A stretch of 64,000 nucleotides of DNA from Candidatus Hydrogenedentota bacterium (GTDB lineage: Bacteria > Hydrogenedentota > Hydrogenedentia > Hydrogenedentales > SLHB01), in NCBI GenBank assembly GCA_045863335.1, contig BTVY01000016.1, positions 41,683 to 105,682 on the forward strand. The letters are read 5' to 3'. The position numbers and the translations under genes are program-made. Shown here piece after piece: positions 44,636 through 45,709 of the stretch. Each line of letters starts with the position of its first letter. The stretch's first letter is position 1. Below the pieces are notes generated by a model that saw only the letters and a list, made by a program, of their open reading frames with translations, had not been told where the DNA came from and did not search any database.

Positions 44636-45709
44636 ATGACGATATTCAGCAAAGAGGGGAAAGTGCATACCACGAAACGACGTCAACGCGTCGATGCGGC
44701 GATCCTGGATGCGGCTGAGCTGGTGTTCACACAAAAGGGATATCAGCAGGCGACGATGGACGCCGTCGCGCGCGAGGCCGGCATCTCCGTGGGGACGCTG
44801 TACAACCTGTTCAAGAGCAAGGAGGACATCTACGGGCAGGTCGCGCTGCGCGTCGGGGAAGTCGTGCTTCGGCGTCTCGATCCACTGGCGCGCGCGAGCG
44901 ACCCGGAAGCGGCCGTACTCGACCTCATCCGGCTTCGTTTGCACAACTACACGAACGACCGTCTGTTCTTTCAGCCTTTCTGCTTCCCGGCCTATCTGGG
45001 AGTGCAACCGGAACCGTCGCGTCTTGGCCCTGAAGTGAACCGGCTTCACGAGCACTACGTGGATCTTGTTGAGCGAATATTCCGCCGGTGCCTCGCGAAA
45101 GTGGGACAACCGGGCACCCCGGATATCAAGATGGCGGTCTGCCTGGAAGGGATGTTGAATGTATTCATGGGGTACTGGTCCGAGCCGTTGCAGTCCGACA
45201 ATCTGGCCAAAGTAGCGCGTCACATGAAGACCGTGCTGCTTCGCGGGGTAGCCCCGGCGATCGACACTTCCGAAAGTGACGCGGAAGTGGCTACCTCCCG
45301 GGCGCTCTACATCAGCCGCTATGACTTGGAACGGCTGACGGAACTAATCGAGGTCGTGCGTGACTTCGGGAAGAGGGAGAACCAGAAGTACGCCGACAAT
45401 CTCGACGACGTATTGAAGCATGCGCGCGTGACCAGTCCGCGAGAAGTGCCGCCGGACGTCGTCACGATGAATTCCAAAGTACGCGTGGTCAATCGGAATA
45501 CGGGCACGGAGCATGTGTACGCGCTGGTCTTTCCGCGCAGCGCCGAATCGGCGCCGGAGAACATTTCCATTCTGAATCCGCTTGGGACCGCATTGCTGGG
45601 GCGGCGGCTGGGGGATGTGTTCACGGTCGGGGCCGACGAGACGGCCCCCGTCTATGAGATCACACAGATGCTGTATCAGCCGGAGGCGTCAGGTGATTAC
45701 CACTTGTAG
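44636..45709 (+). CDS. TetR/AcrR regulator fused to a C-terminal Rnk (GreA/GreB-like) domain
   Basis: HTH AILDAAELVFTQKGY..TMDAVAREAGISVGTLYNLFKSKE; residues about 223-357 have PPDVVTMNS, LVFP, ISILNPLGTALLG, YQPEASGDYHL. Confidence 0.9.
   Translation: MTIFSKEGKVHTTKRRQRVDAAILDAAELVFTQKGYQQATMDAVAREAGISVGTLYNLFKSKEDIYGQVALRVGEVVLRRLDPLARASDPEAAVLDLIRLRLHNYTNDRLFFQPFCFPAYLGVQPEPSRLGPEVNRLHEHYVDLVERIFRRCLAKVGQPGTPDIKMAVCLEGMLNVFMGYWSEPLQSDNLAKVARHMKTVLLRGVAPAIDTSESDAEVATSRALYISRYDLERLTELIEVVRDFGKRENQKYADNLDDVLKHARVTSPREVPPDVVTMNSKVRVVNRNTGTEHVYALVFPRSAESAPENISILNPLGTALLGRRLGDVFTVGADETAPVYEITQMLYQPEASGDYHL

Follow-up and report, generated by a model that had tools for sequence, protein, structure and literature searches.

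What does a DNA-binding repressor domain do on a protein of the Rnk type? Rnk is reported to bind RNA polymerase in competition with Gre factors and DksA, its function being given as unknown; deletion of rnk in E. coli is described as being without phenotype in normal growth conditions, and the secondary-channel factors described in the same source do not include one with a DNA-binding part (PMC4598747). The question is raised by a gene in a stretch of 64,000 nucleotides from a Candidatus Hydrogenedentota bacterium (assembly GCA_045863335.1, contig BTVY01000016.1, positions 41,683 to 105,682), the whole of which is called the window here and to which the coordinates refer. This gene encodes a TetR-type N-terminal half and an Rnk-type C-terminal half in one polypeptide. 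An earlier note had interpreted the product as a dimeric, possibly ligand-gated regulator by which an anti-Gre module is brought to selected promoters or to complexes in early elongation, an interpretation that is partly supported by the analysis reported here. On the evidence of sequence comparison, the TetR-Rnk architecture is confirmed as real, ancient and under selection. With a probability of roughly 0.4, the protein would be a bifunctional, self-limiting and ligand-responsive autorepressor, the Rnk end of which acts on bulk polymerase and which partitions between its operator and the polymerase.

The domain content was established by several independent searches (Table 1). Pfam assigns TetR_N (PF00440) to residues 23-67 with an E-value of 1.7e-15 (57 bits, cut-off 24) and GreA_GreB (PF01272) to residues 272-344 with an E-value of 3.7e-15 (56.1 bits, cut-off 26.9). 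In the NCBIfam Rnk model NF004396 (PRK05753), residues 222-356 align to model positions 5-136 of 137. The best relatives by sequence in the Protein Data Bank (PDB) are E. coli Rnk (3bmb) and 2pn0, the match to 3bmb covering residues 228-356 against 10-135 of 136 with an E-value of 1.1e-17. An AlphaFold2 model of the fusion, built from an alignment of 29 sequences (A1) and reaching a mean predicted local distance difference test score (pLDDT) of 86, shows a nine-helix TetR fold in residues 7-204 and, further on, helices at residues 228-244 and 247-261 (17 and 15 residues) followed by a beta domain. Superposition of the C-terminal part on 3bmb by Foldseek gave a template modelling score (TM) of 0.83 normalised to the target. 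For the N-terminal part, the nearest solved folds are acyl-CoA-binding FadR-type regulators, DarR, PfmR and AibR, with matches over 188-209 columns and target-normalised TM scores of 0.56-0.75. As modelled, the TetR half consists of helices only and has two domains, the C-terminal one being the core for ligand binding and dimerisation, and the Rnk half has a short N-terminal coiled coil, not the long coiled coil of Gre factors. In the ESM Atlas, which has no structure for the fusion, the matches were limited to generic TetR clusters with a score of 0.88 (the level of a lead).

Most of what the earlier note had read from the letters is borne out by this. The uninterrupted reading frame of 357 residues with a TetR helix-turn-helix, a helical ligand domain and a complete Rnk module is confirmed by Pfam, NCBIfam, 3bmb and the model, and the protein ends with YQPEASGDYHL as given there. 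The Rnk module, placed by the note from about 45302, is complete and starts at 45299 (residue 222). The linker had been described as acidic, which is true of the window protein (VAPAIDTSESDAEVATS) and does not extend to the family: the 29 aligned members all have a linker of 15-22 residues (median 19) without a conserved sequence or a consistently acidic character.

A fusion of this kind might be recent or an artefact of assembly. Among the homologues listed, 98 of 120 proteins carry both PF00440 and PF01272, with lengths of 317-383 aa and identities of 34-87%, in agreement with the domain architecture expected by the note; the few homologues that have names are labelled Candidatus Hydrogenedentes, and the database names are generic. 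A profile search covering 1.84 billion cluster representatives (50% identity clusters) found 353 proteins at E <= 1e-30; by hand count, approximately 28 of the 150 listed are full-length fusions and the rest are separate TetR or Rnk proteins. In the phylum, 35 of 135 genomes have a match at E <= 1e-30, and 33 of 135 encode an intact full-length fusion; in genome G104 the match is split in two, with one part at the start of a contig, and in G103 Rnk occurs alone. A stop codon between the two domains, which would have pointed to a recent or artefactual fusion, was sought in these relatives, and internal stops are absent from all 35 full-length matches in the 33 genomes. Similarly, 12 of 12 fused loci in other species are single open reading frames (ORFs). 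These loci are labelled Hydrogenedentota, Planctomycetota, Omnitrophota, Lentisphaerae, unclassified and, in one case, 'Bathyarchaeia'. The fusion of this last locus (L010, labelled Candidatus Bathyarchaeia) is 65% identical to that of the window and has a bacterial promoter and operator layout; its contig is probably mis-binned.

Shorter or split forms were likewise sought. A search for shorter homologues gave, among close relatives, only four fragments (P0261-P0264): the source of P0261 marks it as partial, P0263 and P0264 are short stretches, and P0262 (194 aa, 68% identical) begins within the TetR core, cut either by assembly or in nature. The other 116 shorter matches listed are standalone Rnk proteins with at most 51% identity. 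A metagenome scan for split forms with the TetR-only relative P0144 yielded a single weak locus (L120, 28% identity) and no usable evidence. Furthermore, the junction at 45240-45310 is bridged by a DNA contig of run X3 (45096-46207) and by a contig of the RNA library X4 (44960-45510), and no insertion or deletion is listed within 44200-45739 in contigs of independent runs, so that the read support asked about in the note exists. The RNA-library contigs (X4, X16) cover the genes; being contigs, they cannot reveal transcription, start sites or operon structure. Finally, in a tree of 96 Rnk modules, 14 of 14 fused rows lie on one side of a branch with a support (SH-aLRT) of 70, which rises to 94 when the standalone row L024 is included. 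As the tree needs a single label change for the 14 fused modules, it is consistent with a single origin of the fusion.

The fusion has a frequent companion. A standalone Rnk gene lies directly downstream of it in nine of the 12 related loci and in both copies in this genome; in the remaining three (L010, L011, L012) there is no partner Rnk within the fetched DNA. In the window, Rnk paralogue 1 begins 44 nt downstream of the fusion with AAGGAG upstream of its ATG, and is probably co-transcribed with it. According to the tree, paralogue 1 is lineage-specific, and paralogue 2 is the orthologue of the gene directly after the fusion in L008 and L009, as it groups with the partners of these two loci and with L006 with a support of 100. 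No operator-like site was found in 46150-46440, ahead of paralogue 2. The second copy of the module, on contig C52 (loci L005 and L006), encodes a 354-aa fusion 81% identical to that of the window, followed by a standalone Rnk, an unrelated gene of about 363 aa and a third Rnk, with the same double operator at its promoter. Altogether the genome encodes six Rnk modules, along with a single true GreA and a single DksA-type protein. Ten ORFs flanking the fusion in ten related loci had no family in common, Rnk being the sole shared neighbour. Since the neighbours vary by locus except for the downstream Rnk, the conserved unit appears to be 'TetR-Rnk plus Rnk' under its own predicted operator.

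Is the C-terminal half still an Rnk? For this, conservation was compared in 40 fused modules, 12 partners and 70 standalone Rnk proteins. Residues common to at least 80% of the 70 standalone proteins are kept in at least 85% of the 40 fused modules, i.e., D230, R233, L234, L256, L260, P272, D274, TMNS 277-280, L297-P300, S311, L313, G317, G322, G326, YQPE 347-350, G353 and D354. Of these, S311 aligns with S121 of E. coli GreA, and GreA S121P is reported to bind polymerase no longer (PMC7527559). Moreover, alignment A1 has 29 invariant columns, of which 23 fall in residues 230-353, and therefore selection on the Rnk half is strong. Judged from these residues, the Rnk half looks functional, and we infer that it binds polymerase. 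The acidic Gre tip (GreA D41, E44) and the long coiled coil are absent from the fusion, and the true GreA of the genome (on C31) has the DLRENADYHAAKEEQ motif. A complex prediction of residues 220-357 with the rim-helix hairpin of the beta-prime subunit (A2 72-152) scored 0.01 and 0.00 against a mark of 0.32 without control complexes for comparison, a result that weighs neither for nor against binding.

At the same time, the module has diverged. The W-x-V-P-x-G loop, present in 96-99% of standalone Rnk proteins, is lost in the fused modules, which have gained a conserved hairpin tip with V240, R242 and F244 and one extra residue (V-R-D-F-G-K-R-E in the window protein). Because of the lost loop and the gained tip residues, the activity of the Rnk half may have changed. 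In addition, the module scores below curated thresholds: Rnk_N (PF14760) at residues 222-258 reaches 19.7 bits against a cut-off of 23.7, and the fusion scores 97 bits against the equivalog cut-off of 109 of NF004396. PF14760 is present in many members of the fusion family according to precomputed domain lists of the homologues, and both standalone Rnk paralogues of the window are likewise under the NF004396 cut-off (93.3 and 92 bits). The low scores and the remodelled loop and tip would suit an ordinary TetR repressor whose Rnk-fold domain was repurposed, for example for binding the free Rnk paralogue, for signal sensing or for stabilisation, and does not bind polymerase. The pairing with a fast-evolving standalone Rnk in nine of 12 loci, the partner branches being long (0.4-0.8), and the occurrence of Rnk modules joined to unrelated domains (P0123, P0106, P0109, P0122; see below) point in the same direction. 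However, the core residues common to all Rnk proteins are kept, the counterpart of GreA S121 among them, conservation is higher in the Rnk half than in the TetR half, and evidence for Rnk-Rnk contact was not obtained, which makes a mere reuse of the fold unlikely.

The promoter region indicates what the TetR half might do. The predicted fusion promoter matches 11 of 12 consensus positions, is the best of three promoter-like sites in 42300-47800 and ends 50 bases upstream of the start codon. The first base of putative operator 1 is the last T of the -10 hexamer, and putative operator 2, a perfect palindrome, sits inside a 10+2+10 inverted repeat (44600-44621) in the 5' leader, the centres of the two operators being 18 bp apart. 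If transcription starts about 7 bases after the -10 hexamer, they would extend over roughly -7..+7 and +12..+25. Among the 14 fused loci, 11 have a pattern-defined promoter and behind it an operator-like palindrome that starts at most one base from the end of the -10 hexamer; in L011 the site appears after an over-long ORF call is corrected. A second site lies 18-19 bp downstream in eight of the 14 loci under a strict filter, and weaker ones were seen by eye in four more. The layout recurs across several phyla, in intergenic DNA that is otherwise unrelated. The recognition helix SVGT(L/I)YN hardly varies, and neither does the outer TGA...TCA of the half-sites; for this reason a comparison of helix and half-site for covariation gave no signal either way. 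The predicted position of the operators is classic for repression by occlusion and argues against activation. Occupation of operators 1 and 2 by the fusion protein is inferred here, because an unrelated TetR protein encoded on contig C40 sits behind a very similar palindrome.

This geometry could also serve a second purpose. A dimer bound at +12..+25 might act as a roadblock for polymerase while its tethered Rnk fills the secondary channel of the halted enzyme; GreA could then not rescue promoter escape or read-through and repression would be very tight, which would make sense if the repressed Rnk genes are harmful when over-made, as they may be. The rim of the channel lies near the downstream DNA in published polymerase structures. 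The fixed distance of the operators from the -10 hexamer in the 11 of 14 loci, the linker that keeps its length and not its sequence, and the four Rnk modules that would be gathered at the promoter if two dimers bind are all in line with such a cis-acting plug. Moreover, tight control of channel binders is plausible, since over-production of GreA is reported to be lethal in E. coli (PMC7527559). However, operator 1 coincides in part with the -10 hexamer and takes in the start site; a dimer bound there should therefore exclude polymerase without any plug being needed, and in the three of 12 relatives without a partner Rnk there is no product to control. A plug in cis would fit the conserved geometry better than partitioning between operator and polymerase and would explain less well what the output is; as the explanation of the family we consider it rather doubtful.

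Which other promoters might the protein reach? Operator scans covered the 6.75-Mb genome. The paired operator is strong at two places only, the promoter of the fusion itself and that of its paralogue (C52:27145-27176), two further matches to the paired pattern being degenerate. Single operator-like sites occur at chance level (54 observed and about 61 expected by pattern; 45 observed and about 51 expected in a weight-matrix scan). Two single sites stand out by their context. At C14:49292 (locus L121 1750-2032), TTGACA, 17 nt and TAAAAT are followed two bases on by a similar palindrome, upstream of a conserved arginine-rich ORF of 64 aa without Pfam match that is found in 19 of 54 family genomes. 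At C40:10931 (locus L122 766-1416, minus strand), a distinct TetR gene, with 26% identity over the helix-turn-helix, has the same promoter layout and a very similar palindrome one base past the -10 hexamer; cross-talk of its product with the operators of the fusion is possible.

These two sites, each directly after a consensus -10 hexamer, are what the idea of a DNA-targeted factor that takes an anti-Gre module to many selected promoters or to complexes in early elongation throughout the genome could build on, together with a response regulator-Rnk fusion (P0103), which shows that a DNA-binding domain was joined to Rnk more than once. Yet the double operator is restricted to two paralogous promoters and the single sites are at chance frequency. 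The C14 promoter and operator are also kept in G106, G103, G109 and G082, where no fusion was found, and the C40 site precedes a different TetR gene, so that both sites are more simply those of another regulator, which probably binds at C14. The claim of the earlier note that the module is delivered to chosen promoters is therefore not borne out, the only detectable DNA target being the protein's own promoter and that of its paralogue, and a wide regulon is improbable, the least likely of the explanations discussed here. Both this idea and the repurposed Rnk fold are less likely than a plug in cis or partitioning.

In the favoured reading, the N-terminal half would be an ordinary dimeric TetR repressor with a ligand pocket that binds both palindromes, i.e., the -10/+1 region and the first 25 bases of the transcript, and thereby shuts its own operon, in which a free Rnk is usually encoded as well. 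A flexible tether of about 19 residues would link this half to a genuine Rnk module at the C-terminus. Since no DNA target other than its own promoter is detectable, the DNA-binding half would most likely serve dosage control and signal input, and the output would come from Rnk acting on bulk polymerase. The protein would be shared out between operator and polymerase: free channels or a bound ligand would draw it from the operator, resulting in the synthesis of more fusion and more free Rnk, and once the channels are filled it would return to the operator. A role in trans of the fusion itself is suggested by the three of 12 relatives without a partner Rnk (L010, L011, L012), as a pure self-repressor with a purely cis-acting role would have no output there. 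As competitors for the channel, the genome encodes its one GreA and one DksA-type protein.

Besides the sub-threshold scores and the altered loop and tip of the Rnk half, several points weigh against this partitioning autorepressor. Binding of the module to polymerase is a prediction, and so is the feedback built on it. Partitioning needs DNA and polymerase binding to exclude each other, and a flexible linker alone does not bring this about. The conserved linker length of 15-22 residues and the fixed position of the operators fit a geometry in cis at least as well. Furthermore, the unrelated C40 regulator behind a very similar palindrome tempers the assignment of the operators to the fusion, and weak single operators elsewhere in the genome may exist in addition.

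How does the protein compare with known systems? With E. coli Rnk (3bmb) it shares the C-terminal 136 residues end to end at 36% identity, and with 3bmb and the Nitrosomonas homologue 2pn0 the short hairpin, the Gre-type C-terminal domain and the YQPEAxGDY tail. In contrast, E. coli Rnk is a free protein of about 136 aa without a DNA-binding part, whereas the module of the window is tethered to a TetR dimer, has no W-x-VP-x-G loop and has conserved tip residues R242 and F244 of its own. FadR, DarR, PfmR and AibR resemble the other half in the N-terminal helix-turn-helix, the nine-helix fold and palindromes over their own promoter, and the DarR-DNA complex 8svd, by its entry title a dimer of dimers, recalls the paired operators; none of these regulators has a polymerase-binding domain. 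The logic of the favoured reading has precedents in PutA, BirA and NadR, in which one polypeptide combines a DNA-binding autorepressor domain with a working domain and partition between the two tasks gives feedback. Their second domain is an enzyme and that of the fusion would be a polymerase-docking module, so that the analogy is one of logic only. The anti-Gre secondary-channel factors Gfh1 and Rv3788 have the Gre fold, occupy the channel without RNA cleavage and compete with GreA (PMC4598747). Gfh1 also gives weak matches in the PDB sequence search (E-values of 8e-5 to 5e-4); both differ from the fusion by a long coiled coil that reaches the active site, where the hairpin of the window protein is short (228-261), and by the lack of a DNA-binding domain. 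PRK06330 and PRK14720, by their NCBIfam names, join GreA to other domains; these are cleavage factors and their partner domains are not DNA-binding. A search of the literature for a TetR-Rnk or TetR-Gre fusion found no paper.

Rnk also occurs in other combinations. P0103 joins an OmpR-type receiver and a winged helix to Rnk (380 aa); it is a single rare protein (2 members, 1 contig), whereas TetR-Rnk forms a sizeable family. P0123 is a GNAT acetyltransferase-Rnk of 303 aa, P0122 a double Rnk of 294 aa, and P0106 and P0109 (370-373 aa) have an N-terminal region of about 235 aa without domain assignment. The joining of Rnk to an OmpR-type regulator, to GNAT, to a second Rnk and to an unassigned domain suggests a use of Rnk as a portable module for docking.

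Table 1. Features of the TetR-Rnk locus in the window.
Feature	Positions	Strand	Basis or remark
Sigma-70-type promoter, TTGACA (44558-44563), 17-nt spacer, TAGAAT (44581-44586)	44558-44586	+	
Operator 1 (putative), 14-bp palindrome TGAGT-N4-ATTCA	44586-44599		Pattern, recurrence in fused loci
Operator 2 (putative), perfect 14-bp palindrome TGAAT-N4-ATTCA	44604-44617		Pattern
GAGGA preceding the fusion ATG, six bases upstream	44625-44629	+	
TetR-Rnk fusion gene	44636-45709	+	Single ORF, ATG start, 357 aa plus stop
TetR moiety, residues 7-204	44654-45247	+	Pfam TetR_N, nine helices in model
Helix-turn-helix, residues 23-67	44702-44836	+	Pfam TetR_N; followed by helical ligand/dimerisation core
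Flexible linker, 17 aa, residues 205-221	45248-45298	+	pLDDT <50 at 206-218
Rnk module, residues 222-357	45299-45706	+	Pfam, NCBIfam, PDB search, model, Foldseek
Short two-helix hairpin of Rnk module, residues 228-261	45317-45418	+	Model
Gre-type C-terminal domain, residues 272-344	45449-45667	+	Pfam GreA_GreB
Standalone Rnk paralogue 1, 139 aa	45753-46172	+	GreA_GreB 64.8 bits, NCBIfam Rnk 93.3 bits
Standalone Rnk paralogue 2, 140 aa	46434-46856	+	Pfam, NCBIfam

Two neighbouring genes were considered as members of the unit and rejected, as they lie outside its conserved part: the upstream TolC-like gene and the downstream DUF5698/DUF2179 gene. The former (42654-44282, plus strand) encodes a TolC-like outer-membrane efflux protein (OEP, 194.9 bits) in which a long low-complexity stretch rich in glycine and leucine (GGLGGGLGGGL...) is inserted around residue 140; no pump genes lie beside it. 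On C52, the ORF that comes after the third Rnk shows no relation to the DUF2179 protein of the window. In PADLOC, neither the fusion nor the two Rnk paralogues nor the DUF2179 protein had a match. An RNA-library contig of run X16, from a relative approximately 95% identical, lacks 12 bases at 46270, in the spacer before the third Rnk gene of the window, and has a compensating +1/-1 pair at 45740-45744, between the fusion and the next gene; both differences are outside coding sequence. Further away, 48573-52115 (minus strand) encodes a protein of 1179 aa with beta-propeller/FG-GAP repeats and a family-9 glycoside hydrolase, and 34655-37837 (plus strand) holds two tandem AMP-binding (acyl-CoA-synthetase-like) genes; for neither was a link to the fusion seen.

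As a summary, the family is of real interest for the transcription field, with a mechanism of the fusion that is a proposal. It ties an Rnk module to a manipulable operator, a ligand-sensing domain and a partner Rnk gene, by which the role of Rnk becomes testable: the inducing signal, the competition with GreA and DksA and the coupling of DNA and polymerase binding can all be addressed. Tentatively, and with more doubt than confidence, an operator-anchored dimer might plug the channel of a stalled polymerase or sense free channels and thereby set the level of Rnk, which would make it the first DNA-bound factor to contact the secondary channel. If this is true, Rnk would gain a physiological role, linked to a small-molecule signal via the FadR/DarR-like pocket. 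Should the coupling prove not to be real, the family still provides a well-documented example of a bifunctional autoregulator. If it is real, the secondary channel would join the short list of polymerase surfaces that are used by DNA-bound regulators, and a compact repressor with a polymerase-directed end would become available for synthetic biology.

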